Below, one piece after another: positions 1 through 58,665 of a stretch of DNA of 64,000 nucleotides (position 1 is its first letter; each line of letters opens with the position of its first letter). The position numbers and the translations under genes are program-made. This DNA comes from an uncultured bacterium. Its GTDB lineage: Bacteria > Patescibacteriota > Andersenbacteria > UBA10190 > CAIZMI01. Location: contig CAIKKP010000060.1 in the NCBI GenBank assembly GCA_903828055.1, positions 1-64,000 of the forward strand, read 5' to 3'. A model generated the notes under the pieces. It made no database searches and was not told where the DNA came from. It saw nothing but the letters and a program-made list of their open reading frames with translations.

Positions 1-144
1 ATACGGAATTTGTTCTCGAAGCAAATAAGGCGAAAAACGAGCTATTTTCAACCTTTCATTAATAACTTAATAATCACCGCTACGCACGCTGTTTCATACC
101 AATCTTCGGATTGGAAAAGACTGTCAGTGTGACATTACTACGCC

Positions 145-3242: not shown

Positions 3243-3327
3243 GCGCGTTTTCTCCCCTTATTCAAGGGGAGATTAAGAGGGGTTTGGCCGAGAATTATCA
3301 AAGGTTTCAATACAATTCATCAAAATC

Positions 3328-3368
3328 CCTCCCCGCCTCCCTTTGGATAAAGGGAGGAATTCGCGCGC
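3328..3368. repeat. CCCTCCCCGCCTCCCTTTGGATAAAGGGAGG hairpin element (family copy 1)
   Basis: 9-bp stem CCTCCCTTT/AAAGGGAGG with a conserved 5' CCCTCCCCGC flank. Near-identical copy at 53958 and related copy at 35080. Confidence 0.7.
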
Positions 3369-4067: not shown

Positions 4068-4120
4068 TTACCTTTCTCAAAGCTTGATTATTGATCAGCA
4101 ATTTATTACTCTTTCGCCAT

Positions 4121-4235
4121 GGCCTCATCGTCTAACGGCTAGGACGAAGCGTTCTCAACGCTTAAATCGGAGTTCGCCCACGCACCATAAAGGTGCGGGG
4201 CGCCCAGAACCCAACGTGGTTCTTGGGCGATTCTC
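4121..4235 (+). pseudogene. 5' fragment of tRNA-Glu (positions 1-~63) interrupted by a 53-nt double-hairpin insert in the T-loop
   Basis: Identical to intact tRNA-Glu through GGAGTTCG. A 53-nt insert (4177-4229) follows, then ATTCTC, then unrelated sequence. No 3' acceptor strand is present. Confidence 0.75.
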
Positions 4236-4286: not shown

Positions 4287-4358
4287 GGCCTCATCGTCTA
4301 ACGGCTAGGACGAAGCGTTCTCAACGCTTAAATCGGAGTTCGATTCTCCGTGAGGCTA
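4287..4358 (+). tRNA. tRNA-Glu (anticodon CTC)
   Basis: Cloverleaf folded by hand. Acceptor GGCCTCA/TGAGGCT (G1:U72), anticodon loop TTCTCAA, T-arm CGGAG-TTCGATT-CTCCG. No encoded CCA. Confidence 0.8.
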
Positions 4359-4625
4359 CTCATTGATTAAGTTTTGCGAAGCAAAACTAATCCAAATGTA
4401 CATAAAACAGCCATCACGACGCGTGAGGGCTGTTTTACACAAGAATCAATGAACTCAAAGCATTACGCCAAGAGGCGGAATGCGACGAGCTACCTTTGTC
4501 TATTTGCGAAACTATCCTATGTACACAAAATGACCAAACATCCCGTTTGGTCATTTTGCACAAGAATCGAAAAACTCCGAGACTCGAGCACCCGACGGTG
4601 CTGAGTCTCGGAGCTACCATGTGAT
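4359..4625 (+). repeat. tRNA 3'-trailer structured element, two tandem diverged units
   Basis: Unit 2 (4516-4620) carries TGTACACAAAATGACCAAAC-loop-GTTTGGTCATTTTGCACAAGAATCGAAAAACTCCGAG plus a terminal CTCCGAG...CTCGGAG hairpin. Unit 1 is a diverged version. Both end in GAGCTACC. Confidence 0.7.
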
Positions 4626-33770: not shown

Positions 33771-33903
33771 GTTTATGATCCAAGTATAACCCAAAAGCTT
33801 GGTTCTAGACGATTCGCAAAAAATCAGGCATGCTAGCGAACATAGATTGACGCAAAGTTCGTCTTTGCGAGGTCGCATGCAAGCGTGCCGAAGCAATCTG
33901 TAA

Positions 33904-33975
33904 GCCGGCGTAGCTCAGTGGTAGAGCACTTCATTGGTAATGAAGAGGTCGTGGGTCCGATTCCCACCTCCGGCT
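33904..33975 (+). tRNA. tRNA-Thr (anticodon GGT)
   Basis: GCCGGCGTAGCTCAGTGGTAGAGCACTTCATTGGTAATGAAGAGGTCGTGGGTCCGATTCCCACCTCCGGCT, with one C-U mismatch in the acceptor stem. Confidence 0.8.
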
Positions 33976-34101
33976 CTCGAGATTTGTTTCGCTCTGCGAA
34001 ACTATAAAATGTACACAAAATGACCAAACAGGACGTTTGGTCATTTTGCACAAGAATCGAAGAACTCCGAAAATACGCGTCAACAGACACGTATCTTCGG
34101 A
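33976..34101 (+). repeat. tRNA 3'-trailer structured element (copy after tRNA-Thr GGT)
   Basis: Starts at CTCGAG immediately after the discriminator base. GTTTCGC/GCGAAAC hairpin, then the 14-bp hairpin CAAAATGACCAAAC/GTTTGGTCATTTTG, then CTCCGAA...TTCGGAG. Confidence 0.75.
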
Positions 34102-34203
34102 GCCCTTCAATAACTTGCCAAACAAAAAATTATTACATTATTTTCTAAGTATTTTAATTTATATATGTTTGTTGTACTGTGAATCACAGAGAGGAGTTCA
34201 TTT

Positions 34204-34613: not shown

Positions 34614-34695
34614 GGGCAGGTACCGAAGTGGTCAACCGGGGCAGACTGTAAATCTGCTGGCTCAGCCTTCGAAGGTTCGAATCCTTCCCTGCCCA
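34614..34695 (+). tRNA. tRNA-Tyr (anticodon GTA, long variable arm)
   Basis: GGGCAGGTACCGAAGTGGTCAACCGGGGCAGACTGTAAATCTGCTGGCTCAGCCTTCGAAGGTTCGAATCCTTCCCTGCCCA. Confidence 0.85.
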
Positions 34696-34699
34696 CTTA

Positions 34700-34941
34700 T
34701 TGAATTAGTTTTGCTTCGAACACTAAAGGTAGCTCCGAAATTTTGCGTCTCTTGTCGCAATCTTTCGGAGTTCTTTAACTCTTGTGCAATAACCCTGTTA
34801 TCACCCGAAGGGCTCCGAAACTTTGCGCATCCGAACGCAAATATTTCGGAGTTCTTCGATTATTGTGCAAAACGACTCAACGGGATGTTGAGTCGTTTTG
34901 TGTACATCTTTTTTGTTTCGCGAAGCGAAACTTATCTCGAG
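34700..34941 (-). repeat. tRNA 3'-trailer structured element (copy after tRNA-Thr TGT) plus a partial second unit
   Basis: Minus-strand read CTCGAGATAAGTTTCGCTTCGCGAAAC...TGTACACAAAACGACTCAAC-ATCCC-GTTGAGTCGTTTTGCACAATAATCGAAGAACTCCGAA...TTTCGGAG, then a degenerate repeat ending GAGCTACC. Confidence 0.7.
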
Positions 34942-35013
34942 AGCCGACTCCGAGATTCGAACTCGGGACCTTTGCTTTACAAAAGCATTGCTCTACCGCT
35001 GAGCTAAGTCGGC
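34942..35013 (-). tRNA. tRNA-Thr (anticodon TGT; anticodon-stem pairing atypical)
   Basis: Minus-strand read GCCGACTTAGCTCAGCGGTAGAGCAATGCTTTTGTAAAGCAAAGGTCCCGAGTTCGAATCTCGGAGTCGGCT. Acceptor and T-arm are canonical. The anticodon assignment depends on a 4-bp stem. Confidence 0.6.
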
Positions 35014-35079
35014 ATAGTAATCCAACTACCTTAAAGTTACTGTTTTTAAGATATTAGTCAAAGAGACTAAAAAGACAAA

Positions 35080-35112
35080 ATCCACCCCCGCCCTCCTTTG
35101 ATAAAGGAGGGA
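35080..35112. repeat. CCACCCCCGCCCTCCTTTGATAAAGGAGGG hairpin element (family copy 3)
   Basis: Related to 3328..3368 and 53958..53990, with a compensatory stem change (CCTCCTTT/AAAGGAGG). Confidence 0.6.
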
Positions 35113-39924: not shown

Positions 39925-40075
39925 CTTCGTCATCCTTGCGAACCCCGCACCCTTGTGGTGCGTGGGCGAAACAATCTCCCGCGTCTTGTTTTTTTGAGAT
40001 TGCCACGCCTCGCCCATTCTAAAGAATGGTCGATGGCTTGCAAAGACGACGCTTGGCCCTCGCTTTATTTAAGTT
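39925..40075. repeat. multi-hairpin intergenic repeat element, copy A (with nested small hairpin module)
   Basis: GCGAA-[CCCCGCACCCTTGTGGTGCGTGGG]-CGAAACAATCTC..GAGATTGCCACGCCTCGCCCATTCTAAAGAATGGTCGATGGCTTGCAAAGACGACG. The nested hairpin matches the first hairpin of the tRNA T-loop insert. Confidence 0.65.
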
Positions 40076-41153: not shown

Positions 41154-41157
41154 GTCA

Positions 41158-41209
41158 CTTTAAGGGTCACCCCTAAAGTAAAACACTACTTTAGGGGTGA
41201 CCCTTAAAG
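41158..41209. repeat. palindrome CTTTAAGGGTCACCCCTAAAGT-aaaacact-ACTTTAGGGGTGACCCTTAAAG between prfA and prmC
   Basis: 22-bp perfect arms. Belongs to the TTTAAGG...CCCTAAAGT family with 51376..51423 and a solo half at 50768. Confidence 0.75.
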
Positions 41210-41222
41210 TCGCACGCAATTT

Positions 41223-45214: not shown

Positions 45215-45335
45215 GTAGTCGGGCGAGGCGAAGCAATCTCACCAAAATTACGACGCGGGAAATTGCCACGCCTTGCCCTCCGCCAGTTGGCGGACTCACG
45301 AATGGTCAATGGCTTGCAAAGACAACGGCAACTAG
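45215..45335. repeat. multi-hairpin intergenic repeat element, copy B
   Basis: GGGCGAGGCGAAGCAATCTC...GAAATTGCCACGCCTTGCCC...CACGAATGGTCAATGGCTTGCAAAGACAACG. The second hairpin loop is replaced relative to copies A and C. Confidence 0.65.
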
Positions 45336-46123
45336 TTCCCTGCTGGCATGGCAGGATTCTGTAAATCGCGAATATCCTGAATCCCTTGTCGTTGTTGAAT
45401 CGCATCCGACAAAAAGACATTTACTTCCGGAACAACTTTAAAATCCGACACCGTTGCCCCCTTATTTAACGGCCACTGCGCGGTAAACTCGCGACGCTCC
45501 GCCGACAAGAACGCGCCCATAAAAGTCTTACTCGCGCCAATCATTTCACCCTGCGCGTCCAAACCGACAATAGTCACTTCCACGCGCGTATAATCAACAT
45601 TACTTTGATTAGCAAGCAATCCCTTCAACTGAAAAGTATCAATTGTAGGACCTGAAATAATATTCGTCGGCTTATTAATCAATACAATTTCCGGTGGCGC
45701 GAAAGTACTATCAACAAACACCCACTGCGGATTAATTACTTCTAATGTTGCGGTGGCCCCCGCCGGAATATCATAATTAAATGCCGTCAAATATTTTTGA
45801 TCACTTGGCAAGATAAATGATTCGCCTGTTACAATCTGCGGATTTTGACTGTTAGCGGAAATTGTAAACTTATACTGAAAACGTACCGCCCCCGCGTTTG
45901 GATTTGGATTTCGCAGTGTTCCAACCAAATCACCCTTTCCGGGAGTGGTAGCAATAATTTTTGTCGCAATCACCTGCAACGGTAATGCAGTCTTGGGAGT
46001 TGGCGGCGCAGCCGCCGGCGGTGTGTAAGTCAACCAAAAAATCAGTCCGGCAAGCGAACCCCAAAAACCAAAGAAGATACACGCAATCACTATTTGTTTT
46101 ATTGTTCGGTGTTTGAGAACCAT
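45332..46123 (-). CDS. secreted/membrane-anchored hypothetical protein
   Basis: N-terminal TM segment, Pro/Ala-rich linker, and a strand-rich domain. Confidence 0.45.
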   Translation of the reverse strand: MVLKHRTIKQIVIACIFFGFWGSLAGLIFWLTYTPPAAAPPTPKTALPLQVIATKIIATTPGKGDLVGTLRNPNPNAGAVRFQYKFTISANSQNPQIVTGESFILPSDQKYLTAFNYDIPAGATATLEVINPQWVFVDSTFAPPEIVLINKPTNIISGPTIDTFQLKGLLANQSNVDYTRVEVTIVGLDAQGEMIGASKTFMGAFLSAERREFTAQWPLNKGATVSDFKVVPEVNVFLSDAIQQRQGIQDIRDLQNPAMPAGN

Positions 46124-46999: not shown

Positions 47000-47115
47000 C
47001 ATTGCGAACCATCGCTTTCAAGCGAGGCGAAGAAATCTCTTCAACTTTCAACACTGGAGATTGCCACGCCTTGCCCATTCTCACGAATGGTCAATGGCTC
47101 GCAAAGACGACGTTA
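47000..47115. repeat. multi-hairpin intergenic repeat element, copy C (upstream of dnaE)
   Basis: CAAGCGAGGCGAAGAAATCTC...GAGATTGCCACGCCTTGCCCATTCTCACGAATGGTCAATGGCTCGCAAAGACGACG. Confidence 0.65.
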
Positions 47116-47143
47116 AATATTTTTCTTCATGGGGATTCTAAAA

Positions 47144-50200: not shown

Positions 50201-50775
50201 AAAAAGTGAAGATTGGCGGAATTATTACAACCATTAAAAAAATCATCACCCGCACCCAAAAAGCCATGGCTTTTGCCACCGTCGAAGACCGTTCCGGTTC
50301 ACTGGAAGTTTTAGTGTTTGCAAAACTATTAGAAACATCACAAGATCTTTGGTTGGAAGATAAAGTTTTGATTATTGAGGGTCGTGTCAGCGACAAAGAC
50401 GGCGTACCAAAAATTTTGGCTGATTCAGCCGTCGAATACGACCCGGCCAATCCTCCAAAGCCTCTCAAAAACAAAGCTGTGTTTGATGAAAAGCCACCAA
50501 TCAGCATCACTATCAGTGTTCCGGTCAGTGCGACAAAACGCACTTTCATGGACTTAAAAGCCATTCTGGAAAAAGTCGGCAAAGGTCGCACTGCTGTCTT
50601 CTTGGAAATCCAAAAAGAAAACCAAAAAGATTTGTTAAAAACATCCTATCTGATTACTTATACCCCATTTCTCCAAAACCTATTTGGAAATATTTTAGGA
50701 CCGAACTGCATAAAAGTAGAGGAAGCAAAACCGGTAATTCAACACAAGTTTGAACCGGCAGTGGAAGAACTTTAA
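47245..50775 (+). CDS. dnaE: DNA polymerase III alpha subunit
   Basis: N-terminal PHP domain (HLHTHSHYSLLDG) and 1176 aa of typical DnaE architecture. Confidence 0.95.
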   Translation: MPEFIHLHTHSHYSLLDGLSKVDDMVKRAKELNMSAIGLTDHGAMYGIIDFYSTCKKNGIKPIIGVETYVANRSHTQKETGIDNRRYHLTLLAKDMTGYKNLIKLVTTAHLDGYYYKPRVDKELLRANHEGIIALSGCIGSEVGRAITGEGKEKAIQVIREYQEIFGVENYYLEIMHHPDVDNFEKWRFMLIELSRELNIPLVATQDSHYLRPDDAEAHKTLVAISTNTDVGDTGIFAGKGHYHFISTEEAMEWFSDIPEAVTNTKVIADRCNIELTLGKFIFPDFALEEGKTADQMLDELTQKGMTFHGLTNDTATDERRKYELDVIKQKNYAPYFLVVADLLRFARKSDIYTTVRGSAAGSLVAYLSGITNVNPIEFQLPFERFLNPFRPSAPDIDMDFADNRRGEVIEYAKQKYGDDKVAQIGTFGTMMARGAVRDVARALNKPYELGDRVAKLIPMGSQGFPMTIDHAMEIEPELKKLYDNDPEIKHILDISRKLEGTMRHVSVHAAGVVIAPRPLVEYVPIQLDPKDGDRRITQYDMYTVGEDGVGLTKLDFLGIRNLAILEDAVRLVKQHHNIKIDIERIPFDDKKTFEMLAKGETEGLFQLNGEGMTKHLMDLKPSTIHDINAMVALYRPGPMNNIPEYIARKQGRSPIKYFHPKAQNFLAKSYGILVYQDDLMFTALELAGYNWETVDKFRKAIGKKIPAEMAKQHIIFVEGCQKNSNLTKDQAEAIWNLFEPFQGYGFNKAHAACYGRVAFQTAYMKANFPAEYMCAVLSAESGDIEKIAIIINECKRMEIPVLPPDVNFSHKGFTVLKANDQIPKDEIRFGLHTVKNVGEHIVEAIIAEREKAGPFKDLIDFFSRVHSRDLNKKSVESLAKAGAFDTLAERNQILENTDTLLNFNRDIGKQLLTNQANLFGMMPAEVARPKVTLKSVEPATQKQRLSWEKELLGLFISGHPLMDIAPALAEATTQIADITIHNSNEKVKIGGIITTIKKIITRTQKAMAFATVEDRSGSLEVLVFAKLLETSQDLWLEDKVLIIEGRVSDKDGVPKILADSAVEYDPANPPKPLKNKAVFDEKPPISITISVPVSATKRTFMDLKAILEKVGKGRTAVFLEIQKENQKDLLKTSYLITYTPFLQNLFGNILGPNCIKVEEAKPVIQHKFEPAVEEL

Positions 50776-51375
50776 GGGTCACCCCTGAAGTAAAGAGCAA
50801 GGCTCGCCCATGACTGATACACCCTTCGACTCCTCGCCCAGTTGGGCTTGTCGCTCAGGGTTATTTTATTTTGTTTGATAACAAAATAAAATAAAAAAAC
50901 CGCGCGTCAGACGACGAACGGTAACTATTTTTTCGACCCAGAAACCGGCAAGCGACACAACACATACGCTGTCAACAGTTGTACCGGCATAGCACACAAA
51001 ACCACAAAACAGGCGAATGCCTTAGAGACTGTTTCGTAATCACCGACCAAAGTGATAATAGCCCAGGTCAACAAAACGACCGTAATGCAGGCATGAAAAA
51101 CCAATGTCAGCCCGCGCATCTCTACGGCAAATGAACTCCTGGTTGCTCCTGAAACATCACTTCCTTCTTCGCTCGCAACTGCCGGCGGAAGAACCCCTAT
51201 TCCCCGACCACATACAAGATCTCTTCGCCGTCTGCGCCCAAGGCCGTCTAGGCCGTCTAGGCAAAAACCGGACTCTTCTTGTGATTCTGACATATTTCAC
51301 CCCGCAGAAATTAATAACGAACCAACGCCACCTCGTTTTTTACACCTTGTTACTTATTTTGTCCACTTTAAGCCA

Positions 51376-51423
51376 CTTTAAGGAGTATCCCTAAAGTTGC
51401 AACTTTAGGGATACTCCTTAAAG
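51376..51423. promoter_or_regulatory. 48-nt perfect palindrome CTTTAAGGAGTATCCCTAAAGTTGC/GCAACTTTAGGGATACTCCTTAAAG, 40 nt upstream of thrS
   Basis: Perfect inverted repeat with a preceding CCACTTTAAG duplication. Candidate operator or attenuator. Confidence 0.5.
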
Positions 51424-53957: not shown

Positions 53958-53990
53958 CTAATCCCTCCCCGCCTCCCTTTGAATAAAGGG
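53958..53990. repeat. CCCTCCCCGCCTCCCTTTGAATAAAGGGAGG hairpin element (family copy 2), 24 nt upstream of miaA
   Basis: 30/31 identical to 3328..3358. Confidence 0.7.
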
Positions 53991-54013
53991 AGGATACGAT
54001 ACGAATCATCTGC

Positions 54014-55018
54014 ATGAATACATATCAACCAGCCCCAAAACCACTCCTAACAATCATGGGCCCAACCGCATCAGGCAAGACCCAATTGTCTTTAGTGTTG
54101 GCCGAGCAATTCCAGGGAGAAATTATTTCTGCCGACTCGCGTCAGGTTTATTTTGGCATGAATATTGGCACGGACAAAATTGTTTCACGGGGAAAAATTG
54201 CCAGTTCGCCACTTGAACCGATTGAATACAATTCAATGCCCCACTACCTTATCGATACAATTACACCAAACCAACCATATTCGGCAGCGGATTTTGTAAA
54301 CGATGCAACAAAAGTGATCGCGAAAATTCATGAGAACAACCACCTACCGATTGTAATCGGTGGAACGGGTTTTTATATTCGCGCACTTACCGAGAAGAAG
54401 AACTTTGCATCAGTACCGCCGGATTTTGTTTTTAGAGAATGGGCAAACAAACAACCAGTGGAAAATCTGGCGAATGATTTACTTCAAAAAGATCCGATAT
54501 TGGCCGAGCGTATTGATTTAAAAAATCCAAGACGAGTAATTCGAGCTTTAGAGATAGCAAACTATGCGTCGTCTTTGCGAGGCCGCCCGCAGGCGAGCCG
54601 AAGCAATCTCCCGAGTTCCGCGTCCGCTGGGGCAATTCATGAATTTCCCCTACACGAGACCGCATTACCACCAACGCCTGATTTTAATATTCTCAAAATC
54701 GCCATCCATCGCCAACCCGAAAATTTGCGCGACCTCATCACTCAGCGCGTCGACAAACAACTCGAATTAGGACTCGTAGAAGAAATAAGAACCCTGATAA
54801 AACAATACGGCGAGCAGGCGCCGGGCCTTCAAGCAATCGCCTACCGCGAACTTTTTCCATTTCTGCGTGGCGAAGAATCGTTGGAAGCAGGAAGACAAAA
54901 AGTTATCAATGCCAACTGGCAATACTCAAGACGACAATTAACTTGGCTCAAGAAAGAACCCAACATTGTCTGGATTGAAAATGAAGAAGAAGCGATTGAA
55001 TTGGTAAAATCTTGGTAA
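54014..55018 (+). CDS. miaA: tRNA dimethylallyltransferase
   Basis: P-loop IMGPTASGKTQLSL and DSRQVY motif. Contains an insertion of about 20-35 aa derived from the multi-hairpin repeat family. Confidence 0.88.
   Translation: MNTYQPAPKPLLTIMGPTASGKTQLSLVLAEQFQGEIISADSRQVYFGMNIGTDKIVSRGKIASSPLEPIEYNSMPHYLIDTITPNQPYSAADFVNDATKVIAKIHENNHLPIVIGGTGFYIRALTEKKNFASVPPDFVFREWANKQPVENLANDLLQKDPILAERIDLKNPRRVIRALEIANYASSLRGRPQASRSNLPSSASAGAIHEFPLHETALPPTPDFNILKIAIHRQPENLRDLITQRVDKQLELGLVEEIRTLIKQYGEQAPGLQAIAYRELFPFLRGEESLEAGRQKVINANWQYSRRQLTWLKKEPNIVWIENEEEAIELVKSW
54565..54660. repeat. repeat-family segment (copy D) embedded in frame inside miaA
   Basis: CGTCGTCTTTGCGAG...GCGAGCCGAAGCAATCTCCCG... matches the ends of elements A, B and C. 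It encodes the SSLRGRPQASRSNLPSSASAGAIHEF insert. Confidence 0.55.
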
Positions 55019-55234: not shown

Positions 55235-56053
55235 TCATGCGGGAACCGACGACGTTCTCCTGAGCCTGGCGAAGTTTTCCCAAGCCTCATCACGTTTCAA
55301 TTTGACCAAAACCGCATCCGGCCCGCCCAAAGACAAGACCTTGGTCCATTCTGCAGTTTCTTGAATAGCGCATTCTTCTGCCACACGAATATCGCCCAAT
55401 TTCTCAAAAATCCCCGATTTCGTGCGGTACAGATTGGCTAGGTGATGGCTACCCTTCCCATCACAATCAATTTTGTACCTACTCATCGCCACCTCCAGAA
55501 GTCCCAATGCCATAGCGACATTTTCAAGACCCAGCGGGTCACCGATGTAAACCTGCGCCGCGTCACGGAACAAATTGGCGACCTCCACCCCTTCCTGCCC
55601 AATGATAGCCTGAAGGGTATTCAACATCGGATCATAGTTTCTCCAAAAATGGTAATTTTGATCACCCGCAAAATCGACAAACGCGCGCGCAACTGCCAAC
55701 CGGTCAATGATTCTTCCCGATTCATTACTACATAACACCCTACCGGACAATTCATACCGATAATCCGCCAGTAGGTACAACTTACACAACAATGCCCACT
55801 GGTCTTCACCCGCCGCTACGGCGTTTTTCATCGCTTCGGTAAAACGACCGAGTCGATAATGACACCAGGCTGCCCAACCAAGCGCTTCACTTATTGGATT
55901 TTGACCACCGGCCATCAGCACTTCCAACTGTGACAAAGCGCCGGCATAATCTTTTTCGTTAAAAAGCCGTTCGATTTCGGCAAATTTGTTCTCGTCCGAC
56001 ATGATTATTCTCCCGTGAAAATGAACACGTTTCGACCGTAAACATCCAAACAA
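55235..56053 (-). CDS. TPR-like hypothetical protein, paralog 1
   Basis: About 40% identical to 56260..57021. Both start MSDENK(F/Y)A. Confidence 0.5.
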   Translation of the reverse strand: MFGCLRSKRVHFHGRIIMSDENKFAEIERLFNEKDYAGALSQLEVLMAGGQNPISEALGWAAWCHYRLGRFTEAMKNAVAAGEDQWALLCKLYLLADYRYELSGRVLCSNESGRIIDRLAVARAFVDFAGDQNYHFWRNYDPMLNTLQAIIGQEGVEVANLFRDAAQVYIGDPLGLENVAMALGLLEVAMSRYKIDCDGKGSHHLANLYRTKSGIFEKLGDIRVAEECAIQETAEWTKVLSLGGPDAVLVKLKRDEAWENFARLRRTSSVPA

Positions 56054-56168
56054 CCGTCATATTTAAATATCACGGATACGGATTTTTGGCAAGAGAGAGA
56101 CGTGATTATGATATACGATTTATGATTTATGAAGGACGAATGTTTCGCGCCGTCGATTCATCAATCAT
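56051..56168. promoter_or_regulatory. 118-nt conserved promoter block, copy a (117/118 identical to 57071..57188)
   Basis: On the minus strand it contains TTGCCA, a 17-nt spacer and TATTTAAAT, plus GATTTATGATTTATGA direct repeats. Confidence 0.6.
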
Positions 56169-56195
56169 CATTCATTATTCGTCATTCATATAAAA

Positions 56196-56228
56196 AACCA
56201 CCAGCGTTGGTTGCTGATGGTGACTAAA
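56196..56228 (-). terminator. rho-independent terminator of paralog 2
   Basis: Minus-strand hairpin CACCATCAGC-AACCAAC-GCTGGTGG followed by TTTTTT. Confidence 0.6.
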
Positions 56229-56259
56229 TGTCGATCTTGTGGACAGAGCGATACCGCCC

Positions 56260-57021
56260 TCACTTAGTTGCTTGCTGTACGAGTCGTTCGAGCCGTAAAG
56301 CGTGTCCAATGACACCTACACGACAATCCCTATATCCCTCATTTTGCGGATCATGCTGAATTGCTATCAACCACAACTTAGCTGATTTATTTGCAACTTG
56401 GTAAGCCGAAGGAACGTCACCGACGACTTCCATCACCTTACTCTTCCAAAACAGCGCTTCGGCCCGGTGGTGCGCGTTTTCGTCTGCGATGCCGTACTTC
56501 ATGATTGCGATTTCAAGTAGCCCAAGAGCAATAAAGAAATCGGCACTTGTAGTTGCATTATCCGCACATACCCGCGAGGCATCACGGAACAGGTGGCCAA
56601 CTTCGACCCCCTCATCCGGAGCTAACACAGAAACGTGAGCCAACATCGTGTTGTTATCTCGCCAGAAGACATTGTTCGGATCACGTGCAAAATCAATGAA
56701 AGCTCGTGCAATCACAACAAAATCACTAATCCTTGCCAGAGTCTCATGTACTTCCGTTTTGCTGACACTTTCATACCGGCAATCCGCTAACACATATGCT
56801 TTGCAAAGCAACGCTCTTTGGTTATTATCAGTGACACGATGCAGCACTTCGACTGCCTCTGCCAGATTTCCTAACCGAAAGTTACACCAACCAGCCCAAG
56901 CAAAATCCTCGTTGGCAAAACCGTCAACAGTCGCATAGGTCTCCAACTGACGTAAAGCCAAAATGTAGTTGCCTTTGTCGTAAAGATTCTTTACGATAGC
57001 ATACTTGTTCTCGTCCGACAT
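56260..57021 (-). CDS. TPR-like hypothetical protein, paralog 2
   Basis: See 55235..56053. Confidence 0.5.
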   Translation of the reverse strand: MSDENKYAIVKNLYDKGNYILALRQLETYATVDGFANEDFAWAGWCNFRLGNLAEAVEVLHRVTDNNQRALLCKAYVLADCRYESVSKTEVHETLARISDFVVIARAFIDFARDPNNVFWRDNNTMLAHVSVLAPDEGVEVGHLFRDASRVCADNATTSADFFIALGLLEIAIMKYGIADENAHHRAEALFWKSKVMEVVGDVPSAYQVANKSAKLWLIAIQHDPQNEGYRDCRVGVIGHALRLERLVQQATK

Positions 57022-57070
57022 GACCTATCTCCCATGAAAAAGGACTCGTTTCAAACACAGTGCCCAATAA

Positions 57071-57188
57071 CAACCGTCATATTTAAATATCACGGATACG
57101 GATTTTTGGCAAGAGAGAGACGTGATTATGATATACGATTTATGATTTATGAAGGACGAACGTTTCGCGCCGTCGATTCATCAATCAT
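57071..57188. promoter_or_regulatory. 118-nt conserved promoter block, copy b
   Basis: Near-identical to 56051..56168. Abuts the gatB stop codon. Confidence 0.6.
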
Positions 57189-58665
57189 TAATCGTCAATC
57201 CTAATTCAACGCGAATCATTTCCTGTACTTTTTGGGGATTGGCGCGACCTTTTGTTTCTGCCATCACTTTACCCATCAAAAATTGAACTACTTGCACCTT
57301 ACCGGCACGGGCCTTATCCACTTCCGCAGGATTAGCGTTCAACATGTCTTGAACTATCCGGCGCAATTGATCATCATCGCTCACTTGCCCCAAACCTTTA
57401 TCGGCAACAATATTCGATGGGTCACCGCCTGTTTTTTGCATAATGCGAAAAACTTCCGGCATAGCATTACGATTCACTTCCGCGCGATGCAACATCACAA
57501 TCAATTCCGCAAAATTTTCCGGACTTATTTTTGTATGACTAAAATCAGTTTTTTCTTCAGCAAGAATGTTTCGAAAATCACCCAATAAATAGTTCGCGGC
57601 TAACTTGTACAAACGGACACTGTCTCGTTTTTCTACATCTGAACGCTGTTCATTCCATGCCAAAATTTCTGAAAAAACATTTTCAGTATATGAGGCCAAC
57701 ATTCTGTCTTCCACCATTATTCTAACTTGCTCATCTGGGAGTTGGAACTGACTGATAAAACGCGCTTCTTTTTCATGCGGTAATTCGGGTAATGCTTCAC
57801 GCATTCGTTGAATTAATTCTTCGTCTATTTTTAGTGGCGGTATATCCGGTTCCGGAAAATATCGATAATCAGCTTCGTCTTCTTTCACGCGCTGTTCGAC
57901 TGTTTCTTGCGTCGCATCGTTCCAACCACGTGTGCTTTGTTTTGTTGGCGGATTTCCCTGTTGCCAAAGTTCGGTCTGACGCGCAATTTCATAAGTTAAC
58001 GCACGCTCCACCGCCTTAAAAGAATTAAGATTTTTACACTCCGTTTTGGGATTCAATTTCCCACCTATTTCGCGCATCGAAATATTCGCGTCAACACGAA
58101 GATCGCCATTTTCCATATCCGCATTAGATACACCAATATAACGAATGGTGCGTTGCAGGTCTTCCAAAAAGATTTTTGCTTCTTGCGGTGTTTTAATGTC
58201 CGGTTCAGTCACAATTTCTACCAACGGGGTCCCGGAGCGTGTGTAATCAACCAGTGTTCCACCGTCATGAATATTCTTCGCCGCATCTTCTTCCATGTGC
58301 GCACGTGTAATCCCAATTTCCTTTTCCTCATTGCTCACAAATACTTTTACTTTTCCTTCATAGCAAATTGGCTCGTCATATTGCGAAATCTGATAACCTT
58401 TTGGCAAATCGGGATAGAAGTAGCTTTTGCGGGAAAATGTCGTATGTGAGGCAATTTTGCAGTTTAAGGCCAGCCCCACCTTGATTGCCCACTCCACCGC
58501 TTTTCCATTGAGTACCGGAAGTTGTCCCGGAAAACCCATACAAATTGGGCAAACAAAACGATTCGCCTCCTCCGCTTCAGACACGTTCTTACACCCGCAG
58601 AACATTTTTGACTGGGTGTTGAGATGAACGTGGATTTCAAGGCCTATTACTGGTTCGAGATTCAT
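57181..58665 (-). CDS. gatB: Asp/Glu-tRNA(Asn/Gln) amidotransferase subunit B
   Basis: N-terminal PVIGLEIHVHLNTQSKMFCGC and a C-terminal GatB/YqeY domain. Confidence 0.92.
   Translation of the reverse strand: MNLEPVIGLEIHVHLNTQSKMFCGCKNVSEAEEANRFVCPICMGFPGQLPVLNGKAVEWAIKVGLALNCKIASHTTFSRKSYFYPDLPKGYQISQYDEPICYEGKVKVFVSNEEKEIGITRAHMEEDAAKNIHDGGTLVDYTRSGTPLVEIVTEPDIKTPQEAKIFLEDLQRTIRYIGVSNADMENGDLRVDANISMREIGGKLNPKTECKNLNSFKAVERALTYEIARQTELWQQGNPPTKQSTRGWNDATQETVEQRVKEDEADYRYFPEPDIPPLKIDEELIQRMREALPELPHEKEARFISQFQLPDEQVRIMVEDRMLASYTENVFSEILAWNEQRSDVEKRDSVRLYKLAANYLLGDFRNILAEEKTDFSHTKISPENFAELIVMLHRAEVNRNAMPEVFRIMQKTGGDPSNIVADKGLGQVSDDDQLRRIVQDMLNANPAEVDKARAGKVQVVQFLMGKVMAETKGRANPQKVQEMIRVELGLTIND

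Follow-up and report, generated by a model that had tools for sequence, protein, structure and literature searches.

The 64-kb window, by which we mean the whole stretch of DNA analyzed here, carries six tRNA genes, identified by ARAGORN and Rfam, among genes for ordinary housekeeping proteins (TypA, DnaE, PBP, MraW, L7/L12, L10, RF, ThrRS, and GatB). Directly behind one of them, tRNA-Thr(GGT), starts an element of about 130 nt that consists of three hairpins (H1, H2, and H3) and conserved linkers. It belongs to a repeat family that matches no described family, and this family colonizes one site: directly past the tRNA 3' end, in the orientation of the tRNA. The copies in the window, with the parts of the Thr(GGT) copy, are as follows.

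33904..33975, plus strand: tRNA-Thr(GGT) (ARAGORN, Rfam), whose discriminator base abuts the element
33976..34107, plus strand: canonical element copy, starting with CTCGAG directly 3' of tRNA-Thr(GGT); covariance-model match of 135.1 bits
33986-34002, plus strand: H1 of the Thr(GGT) copy, GTTTCGC-N3-GCGAAAC
34010-34020, plus strand: TGTACACAAAA of the Thr(GGT) copy, between H1 and H2
34016-34048, plus strand: H2 of the Thr(GGT) copy, a perfect 14-bp stem
ending at 34065, plus strand: linker TTTTGCACAAGAATCGAAGAAC of the Thr(GGT) copy, 3' of H2
about 34065-34101, plus strand: H3 of the Thr(GGT) copy, closed by CTCCGA/TCGGAG
31018..31151, minus strand: canonical copy directly 3' of tRNA-Trp (31152-31222, minus strand); 143.9 bits
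34808..34941, minus strand: canonical copy directly 3' of tRNA-Thr(TGT) (34942-35013, minus strand); 129.6 bits
34728..34807, minus strand: additional copy of the 3' module only (TTGCACAAGAGTTAAAGAAC, H3, CTACC), repeat family D12; partial match of 33.5 bits
4359..4494, plus strand: diverged "variant 1" unit directly 3' of tRNA-Glu(CTC) (4287-4358); 112.2 bits
4506..4618, plus strand: 5'-truncated canonical unit, forming a dimer with the variant-1 unit at 4359-4494; repeat family D5
34696..34722, plus strand: remnant of about 27 nt of a variant-1 start (CTTATTGAATTAGTTTTGCTTCGAACAC), directly 3' of tRNA-Tyr (34614-34695)

A preliminary description of this DNA had placed a conserved multi-hairpin element behind tRNA-Glu(CTC), tRNA-Trp, tRNA-Thr(GGT), and tRNA-Thr(TGT), and we found all of its parts where that description put them. 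The start at CTCGAG directly past the discriminator is exact, with tRNA-Thr(GGT) ending at 33975 and CTCGAG running from 33976; the proposed end at 34101 falls 6 nt short, as the covariance model runs to 34107. Behind tRNA-Glu, a diverged unit is indeed followed by a canonical one, which is 5'-truncated and has neither CTCGAG nor the left arm of H1. The two variants of the 14-bp stem carry compensating 3' arms as described, and the open reading frames (ORFs) over the repeat are spurious, as had been supposed. All copies that had been listed are real, but the H3 module at 34728-34807 and the tRNA-Tyr remnant had been missed.

The element is built from two modules. Module 1 (about 95 nt) has a 5' end that pairs with the linker past H2, enclosing H1 and H2, and module 2 (about 45 nt) comprises H3 and the CTACC after it. 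The H3 module can be separated from the rest, as the copy of the 3' module alone at 34728..34807 shows; across the family, it is found alone or is absent in some copies, and the dimer of a variant-1 and a truncated canonical unit recurs behind other tRNAs at other loci. H1 is nearly invariant apart from coordinated C:G-to-U:A changes. H2 is hypervariable, with many distinct stem sequences among the 47 H2 units collected, and is bounded by invariant feet of A3-4 and T3-4 and by conserved flanks. The foot of H3 covaries (CTCCGAG, CTCCGAA, CTCTGAG, CTCCGGA, and others), and the terminal hairpin pairs in every copy, as first described, though its inner part also includes bulges and mismatches. The Thr(GGT) copy (33976-34107) gave fold z-scores of -9.1 as RNA and -8.2 as DNA, and a 27-nt linker motif occurred 4 times in the window with at most 1 mismatch, compared with 0 times in 100 shuffles.

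A pattern scan of 185,579 species genomes returned real matches in one genome, at 11 loci. That genome is the metagenome-assembled genome (MAG) "uncultured bacterium Loc090907-8-6m_bin-405" (CAIZMI01), and a scan of metagenomes contributed 24 further loci from seven Joint Genome Institute (JGI) metagenomes; loci are cited below by L numbers. The window was not itself among the matches of the genome scan, but its positions 5-122 are 100% identical to the end of L105, and European Nucleotide Archive (ENA) scaffolds from the same study contain its sequence; the window therefore belongs to the organism of this MAG. The family is confined to a narrow clade of uncultured bacteria. About 95 single pattern matches in unrelated genomes and 7 in viral contigs were set aside as chance; the ones sampled in either group had no covariance-model match. 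A phage or plasmid origin was rejected, with no blastn match in phage or plasmid records. Rfam 15, searched in gathering and E-value modes over the window and 21 loci, returned solely tRNA and rRNA matches, the best other match in E-value mode having an E value of 0.12, far below gathering scores, and a literature search found no description of this repeat family. Near the copies, the only multicopy protein-coding sequences were spurious ORFs of the repeat and a family of LAGLIDADG paralogs. These repeats break assemblies, seed spurious ORFs, and adjoin pseudo-tRNAs, which affects the annotation of such MAGs.

We built a covariance model from 34 units and searched it over the window, the 11 loci of the source MAG, and the 24 metagenome loci (288 kb). 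Because the loci outside the window were fetched for containing the element, the sample is unbiased for tRNA linkage only in the window, where all units lie behind tRNAs and none elsewhere. The search found 48 copies, all intergenic. Thirty of the 48 start 0 to 3 nt past a co-oriented tRNA. For 12 more, a tRNA lies within 400 nt, and what stands between is another unit or an insertion of 140 to 210 nt that ends in a direct repeat of the last 16 to 18 nt of that tRNA; 4 follow a tRNA tail repeat or are cut by the edge of the locus, and 2 (L135 and L136) are preceded by degenerate tail-like sequence. More than 20 tRNA species are followed by the element, the junction occurs in more than 30 different tRNAs, and the orientation is always that of the tRNA. 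The tRNA link is strict and extends past the window, where the preliminary description had suggested searching with a covariance model, and compensatory changes are abundant.

Two features of the tRNA genes themselves are recorded here. At L136 (3300-3440), a copy stands behind tail-like sequence (…CCTGGGTACTTAACCCGAGTGGCCCG) without a recognizable tRNA, and the sequence upstream could hold an undetected unusual or intron-containing tRNA. C74 is present in 58 of the 59 tRNA genes of the window and loci L027-L137, whether or not an element follows and whatever the local sequence (CTC, CAA, CTA, CCA, CTT, and so on), and the full CCA is encoded in just 5 of the 59, an unusual partial-CCA pattern that may bear on tRNA 3'-end maturation.

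Comparison with related genomes revealed turnover of the copies. Synteny with the window holds for L128, L129, and L121, and by BLAST the coding DNA of L128 and L129 is 75 to 77% identical to it at the nucleotide level, so that two related genomes could be compared. At tRNA-Trp, L128 has a canonical terminator and a second element directly behind, without the window's element; the window has the element plus 14 nt in place of about 55 nt of L128 sequence, and the downstream sequence still aligns. Behind tRNA-Thr(GGT) and tRNA-Glu(CTC), the window and L128/L129 carry different subfamilies. Between the convergent tRNA-Thr(TGT) and tRNA-Tyr genes, the units share the orientation of Thr(TGT) in the window but that of Tyr in L128, and in each genome the other tRNA retains only a stump; tRNA-Tyr of L128 carries intact units where the window has the 34696-34722 remnant. 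Stumps of 9 to 15 nt (CTCGAGAT...) stand behind tRNA-Leu(GAG) and tRNA-Gly(CCC) in the MAG and behind tRNA-Thr(TGT) in L128, and copies are truncated past H2 in L041 and L081. Copies do not cluster by genome: those of the window and L128 behind different tRNAs are up to 94 to 95% identical, and the genes are about 76% identical. The turnover and the lack of clustering require movement or exchange and argue against purely vertical inheritance and within-genome homogenization. We rejected concerted evolution by within-genome gene conversion on account of this lack of clustering. On the time scale over which species diverge, copies are gained, replaced, dimerized, truncated, and deleted, and new copies land beside the tRNA, pushing older insertions outward.

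The hairpins covary strongly. RNAalifold, run on a MAFFT alignment, predicted 35 pairs, 22 of them with compensatory changes. In an alignment of 40 copies that was fitted to the model's own structure, 96.8% of cells were paired (81.6% when shuffled), 216 cells had changed on both sides (62 when shuffled), and sliding the 3' partners by 1 to 3 columns left just 32 to 47% of cells pairing; the MAFFT alignment gave the same picture. The preliminary description took such covariation to indicate a selected RNA rather than repeats. That conclusion is not supported, because the stems act as DNA palindromes, the loops flip, and the copies turn over.

The stems are nearly pure Watson-Crick, with G.T at about 1% in H1 and H2, and in this they behave like DNA palindromes. 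Among 280 H1 pairs there were 0 G.T and 1 A.C, and among 680 H2 pairs 7 G.T and 5 A.C; the tRNA stems of the same loci have 89 G.U in 1,292 pairs (6.9%). One-sided changes in H2 amounted to 7 cells, versus more than 130 two-sided. Covariation was present, as expected of a structured functional RNA, but the G.U intermediates also expected of one were nearly absent, and no strand asymmetry was seen. Neither strand is favored, because G.U is so rare and no commoner than A.C; G.T and A.C pairs are both so few, and so close in number, that wobble pairs could not assign a strand. Whole-unit folding energies do favor the antisense strand, solely through spurious pairing of its G/T-rich linkers, and when folded as single-stranded DNA, both strands are equally stable.

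The loops point the same way. On identical H2 stems, the loop can face either way (ATCCC/GGGAT and GTCCT/AGGAC), the window and L121 differ in the loop orientation of their Trp copies, and H1 loops show the same kind of flip pairs (TTA/TAA and TTC/GAA). The loop inversion described earlier is real, but it had been assigned to the wrong partners: AGGAC is the flip of GTCCT, not of ATCCC, which is flipped by GGGAT (L035). One L041 hairpin combines a 5' arm from one stem type with a 3' arm from another. Loop flips require recombination or template switching between both arms in DNA. Quasi-palindrome correction is a known mechanism, and by analogous copying from arm to arm a mutation would be transferred to the other arm, producing "compensatory" changes without selection on RNA. 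Covariation alone does not prove selection on RNA as opposed to DNA for this element.

We therefore lean, with somewhat better than even confidence, toward a modular nonautonomous mobile repeat, similar to BIME, BOX, or miniature inverted-repeat transposable elements (MITEs), that targets tRNA 3' ends and is cotranscribed as a trailer. Such a repeat would be mobilized in trans by an enzyme absent from the analyzed sequence, one that would recognize the T-arm/acceptor end of tRNA genes and perhaps also the T-loop-like GAATCGAA of the element. This linker motif is the reverse complement of the T-loop (TTCGATT), and we speculate from that resemblance that it could be a shared protein- or guide-binding site. 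The stems would be kept complementary mainly by DNA exchange between palindrome arms, through template switching or quasi-palindrome correction, and the same process would flip the loops. The element is probably transcribed as a tRNA 3' trailer, because no canonical terminator lies between tRNA and element (several element-free tRNAs have one directly 3'), and it would then be removed during 3' maturation. H2 has features of a terminator, namely, an invariant A3-4, a variable stem, and T3-4; the sense strand has just 4 T past the stem, and antisense H2 passes a simple terminator scan in 2 of 3 copies. As a weak bidirectional terminator it might render insertion harmless, and given this resemblance, insertion may be tolerated or mildly useful.

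Several observations weigh against a mobile repeat. The 64-kb window contains no transposase, integrase, or reverse transcriptase; in neither the window nor the element-bearing loci examined did we find an autonomous transposase partner or a reverse transcriptase, integrase, or other mobilizing enzyme linked to the element. No empty-site polymorphism appeared within the population, where three other assemblies match the window at 99.7 to 100%. Not a single off-target copy was seen, and a selfish element would usually leave some. None of the copies has flanking direct repeats that would mark a target-site duplication, and the right flanks are unrelated; the 8 nt upstream of the element differ between tRNAs, with the C at tRNA position 74 as the sole common base. 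Other observations concern conservation. The unpaired linkers (TGTACAYAAA and TTTRCACAAGAATCGAAGAAC) are 90 to 100% conserved across genomes with about 25% gene divergence, the A3-4/T3-4 base of H2 never changes, and the long-range helix between the element's first bases and the linker past H2 covaries between subfamilies. The helix is a perfect 9 bp in two diverged subfamilies, TCATTGATT/AATCAATGA (as at the 5' end of the variant-1 unit, 4359..4494) and TCTTTGACT/AGTCAAAGA, and is interrupted in the canonical subfamily, with only 4 contiguous bp; L125, L126, and the L115/L116/L122 group show single compensated changes. Two readings suit this helix, a stem that closes a three-way junction and the terminal inverted repeats of module 1. 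The conserved linkers, constant H2 base, and covarying long-range helix are equally expected of a selected RNA or protein-binding structure.

We consider it possible but doubtful that the three-way junction and H3 form a selected RNA module in the tRNA 3' trailer, with its spread between tRNA loci secondary. Its roles might include termination or insulation, an exonuclease block, a guide for 3' maturation, or protein binding, in the precursor or as a released small RNA. Covariation extends to all helices, including the one that would close the junction, and the highly conserved linkers are A-rich; position and orientation guarantee cotranscription with no intervening canonical terminator, the invariant A- and T-tracts around the freely varying H2 stem are terminator-like in antisense, and off-target copies are absent. 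Against this, tRNA-Val-CAC, tRNA-Met, tRNA-Ser-GCT, and tRNA-Trp in L128 have no element, so the element is not generally required for processing; some copies have decayed to stumps, and subtypes differ between orthologous sites. The near absence of G.U, no commoner than A.C and favoring neither strand, also speaks against it, as do the flipped loops, which show that loop sequence is unconstrained, the sense T-tract of just 4 nt past H2, and the lack of an Rfam family match. The roles as terminator, protein site, or cotranscribed RNA that the preliminary description proposed would come second to those of a dispersed DNA repeat that is probably mobile.

The repeat shares its tRNA genes with other insertions, one of which lies beyond the Trp copy.

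30881..31003, minus strand: type-B element remnant; the Trp element copy lies between tRNA-Trp and this remnant

In this remnant, the tRNA-Trp T-arm is present as an inverted copy (GAGGGAATCGAACG), the core has two hairpins and contains GGCGGTGGCTAAC, and the T-loop recurs as a degenerate direct copy (CGATTCC). Type-B elements also occur at L041 (1810-2011), L081 (2109-2266, minus strand), L079 (4171-4350), L126, L131, L134, L114, and L123. Past the tRNA, their order is a canonical bidirectional terminator, an inverted copy of the 3' strand of the acceptor and T-arm (often split by a hairpin), the core (…CCGGAG-hairpin-CGAGGCGGTGGCCAG-hairpin-GAGGC), and a direct repeat spanning T-loop C56 to the discriminator; the predicted fold of the whole is a long, two-armed stem. 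In every case, both the inverted and the direct part agree with the cognate tRNA, unusual T-loops included. Upstream of tRNA-Arg(GCG) in L081 (2341-2570, minus strand), a pseudo-tRNA-Arg carries the type-B core in its T-loop, between positions 53 and 56; this core includes a terminator-like hairpin, and the 13 nt upstream of the gene are also duplicated. The arrangement suggests that the type-B core inserts into T-loops and that the duplication keeps an intact gene copy.

Pseudo-tRNAs also occur in the window. Upstream of tRNA-Glu(CTC) (4120-4235, plus strand) and tRNA-Val(CAC) (13933-13821, minus strand) stand pseudo-copies running from position 1 to G57, with near-identical two-hairpin inserts of 52 to 53 nt (CCCACGCACCATAAAGGTGCGGGGCGCCCAGNACCCAACGTGGTNCTGGGCG) exactly between G57 and A58, followed by an AT-rich spacer with promoter-like hexamers and then the intact gene. 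Related inserts occur in a pseudo-tRNA-Lys (L035) and a pseudo-tRNA-Gly (L049). About 190 nt upstream of tRNA-Lys(TTT) in L035, a pseudo-tRNA-Lys has three separate small hairpin insertions, one each in its anticodon stem/loop, variable region, and T-loop.

Three free-standing genes that encode a helix-turn-helix (HTH) domain and a domain like that of LAGLIDADG homing endonucleases adjoin tRNA-Met (L105, 618-1535, plus strand), tRNA-Leu(GAG) (L041, 950-1588, plus strand; a weak match, E = 0.006), and tRNA-Arg(GCG) (L081, 958-1899, minus strand). The same promoter-like motif stands upstream of two of them, and the L081 gene truncates an element copy. These genes are candidate sources of breaks at tRNA genes.

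Junctions of all these insertions fall at tRNA landmarks: the element past 73/74, type B at T-loop 55/56, and a third element, type C, at 57/58, and types B and C include duplicated portions of the tRNA, starting at +1 or ending at 73. We consider it unlikely that tRNA genes serve as landing pads for a small set of nonautonomous elements that would move through RNA, by a released trailer, reverse transcription, template switching, and recombination; by analogy, such a system would be a bacterial counterpart of tRNA-linked short interspersed elements (SINEs). An alternative is a homing nuclease that cuts the T-loop (for example, one encoded by the LAGLIDADG genes at the three tRNA loci), with break repair capturing elements.

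For the element itself to be retromobile and SINE-like, with a trailer RNA whose 5' end is set by tRNA 3' processing, its reverse transcription, a template switch to the 3' end of another tRNA, and recombination of the cDNA with the gene of that tRNA, strikes us as quite improbable. In more than 30 different tRNAs without a common DNA target sequence, the junction of the element falls at an RNA-processing site, its orientation is always the tRNA's, target-site duplications are absent, and the other tRNA-linked insertions join at the T-loop and +1, natural ends or stops of a tRNA template. Yet C74 is also found at element-free tRNAs, meaning that the junction need not reflect an RNA end. The window and the loci examined contain no reverse transcriptase gene, there is no poly-A or other hallmark of retrotransposition, and the proposal is wholly inferential.

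Still less probability attaches to a leftover attachment or arm region of a phage or island integrating at tRNA 3' ends, repeated because many tRNAs had served as integration sites. Such ends are classic integration sites, neighboring type-B elements carry direct repeats of the tRNA tail, and L033 has a 730-nt gene-bearing insert between tRNA-Ala and a tail repeat plus element. However, the element is never flanked by a far-side tail repeat, it starts past the tRNA and not inside it, no integrase is nearby, and one and the same sequence stands behind more than 20 tRNA species, a range that no single attachment site would permit. An assembly or binning artifact, such as chimeric joins at repeats, can practically be dismissed: MAG contigs do end in repeats, and the end of L105 is 100% identical to window positions 5-122, but the same tRNA-element junctions are kept in independent assemblies (ERZ27313531, 100% identical over 6,345 nt) and recur with sequence variation in 7 unrelated JGI metagenomes.

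The rRNA genes and other repeats of these genomes were also recorded. On L027 (368-2603, minus strand), a 16S rRNA gene is followed by tRNA-Ile and two element units. On L033, tRNA-Ala(TGC) stands at the contig start (87-158, plus strand), followed by a 207-amino-acid ORF of unknown family, a 7-nt tail repeat, and the element, with no 23S rRNA gene behind the tRNA on that contig; the rRNA operon appears split. This arrangement, the LAGLIDADG genes, and the many genes without annotation prompt a guess, and no more, at a Patescibacteria/CPR affiliation. A small repeat (…CTTTGCGAG-hairpin-CGAGGCGAAGCAATCT…) lies just upstream of tRNA-Thr(GGT) (33859-33899) and at intergenic sites away from tRNAs (54569-54609, 39996-40061, 45245-45337, and 47043-47122), and in L118 (3250-3320) and L131 it interrupts element copies directly past TGTACACAAAAC. 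The window also contains a short palindrome family, ACTTTAAGGGTCACCCCTAAAGT (41157-41213, 50769-50794, and 51375-51400), and a terminator-like family at gene ends, AATCCCTCCCCGCCTCCCTTTGRATAAAGGGAGGA (3324-3358, 35078-35112, and 53960-53994). Within 55235-57208 lie tandem paralogous ORFs (55235-56053 and 56260-57021, minus strand) whose 140-nt upstream segments (56049-56188 and 57069-57208) are 94% identical to each other.

If the element is indeed a mobile repeat, it would be a clean bacterial noncoding element with near-absolute specificity for the 3' ends of many tRNA identities, implying structure- or T-loop-based recognition in small-genome uncultured bacteria. If it is instead a selected RNA, it would add a new trailer or terminator module, specific to this lineage, for CCA-less tRNA genes. 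The stems also serve as a caution that textbook compensatory changes can arise in DNA palindromes without RNA selection.

Among known systems, the family is closest in kind to extragenic palindromic repeats. Repetitive extragenic palindromes (REPs) and bacterial interspersed mosaic elements (BIMEs) are noncoding, multicopy palindromes of enterobacteria and pseudomonads, often transcribed at gene 3' ends; REP units are imperfect palindromes of 20 to 40 bp with a conserved GTAG or CGTC head. The element resembles them in having palindromic units and conserved linkers in mosaics, with stems that stay complementary though copies differ, and its modules are likewise combined, duplicated, and truncated in extragenic copies of high number (48 in 288 kb). 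It differs in its feet (GTTTCGC, CAAAA, and CTCCGAG, with no GTAG or CGTC), in its greater length, with three hairpins and a long-range helix, and in having no RAYT transposase in the sequence analyzed. It also occupies one defined site, past tRNA position 73/74 and co-oriented, rather than general intergenic space.

BOX (boxA-boxB-boxC of Streptococcus pneumoniae), ERIC, and Correia/NEMIS elements are similarly modular, with modules repeated or missing in some copies, structured, and noncoding, with an enzyme that acts in trans or is undescribed, but they scatter over intergenic regions without specificity for tRNA ends. Terminal inverted repeats and target duplications are clear in Correia and ERIC. 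As compared with MITEs, the 9-bp inverted repeat of the variant subfamilies bounds module 1 and not the whole element, and no target-site duplication flanks the copies. The palindrome-associated transposable elements (PATEs) derived from IS200/IS605 insert 3' of a conserved 4- to 5-nt sequence. The element shares with them hairpins near both ends, oriented insertion without target-site duplication, and a left end that abuts the target; unlike them, it has a left flank that shares only C74, its orientation follows the tRNA, with copies on both strands within 4 kb, and neither TnpA nor TnpB was seen.

Integrative elements that target tRNA genes likewise use the 3' part of the tRNA as a landing site and leave the tRNA intact, but the element is only about 130 nt long, has no tail repeat or integrase, and follows more than 20 tRNA species. 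An integron attC site was rejected, as GTTTCGC/GCGAAAC is unlike GTTRRRY/RYYYAAC and there are no R or L boxes, cassette array, or integrase; a likeness to CRISPR repeats (GTTTC...GAAAC) was dropped, there being no arrays. In Methanopyrus kandleri, a palindrome, CGTTA(N)9TAACG, lies about 10 bp past half of the tRNA genes and has been proposed as a 3'-maturation signal (PMC5217627). Although that is a single short archaeal motif with no sequence similarity to the element and no evidence of mosaics or turnover, it too is a lineage-specific palindrome, and H1 of the element also starts 10 nt past the discriminator.

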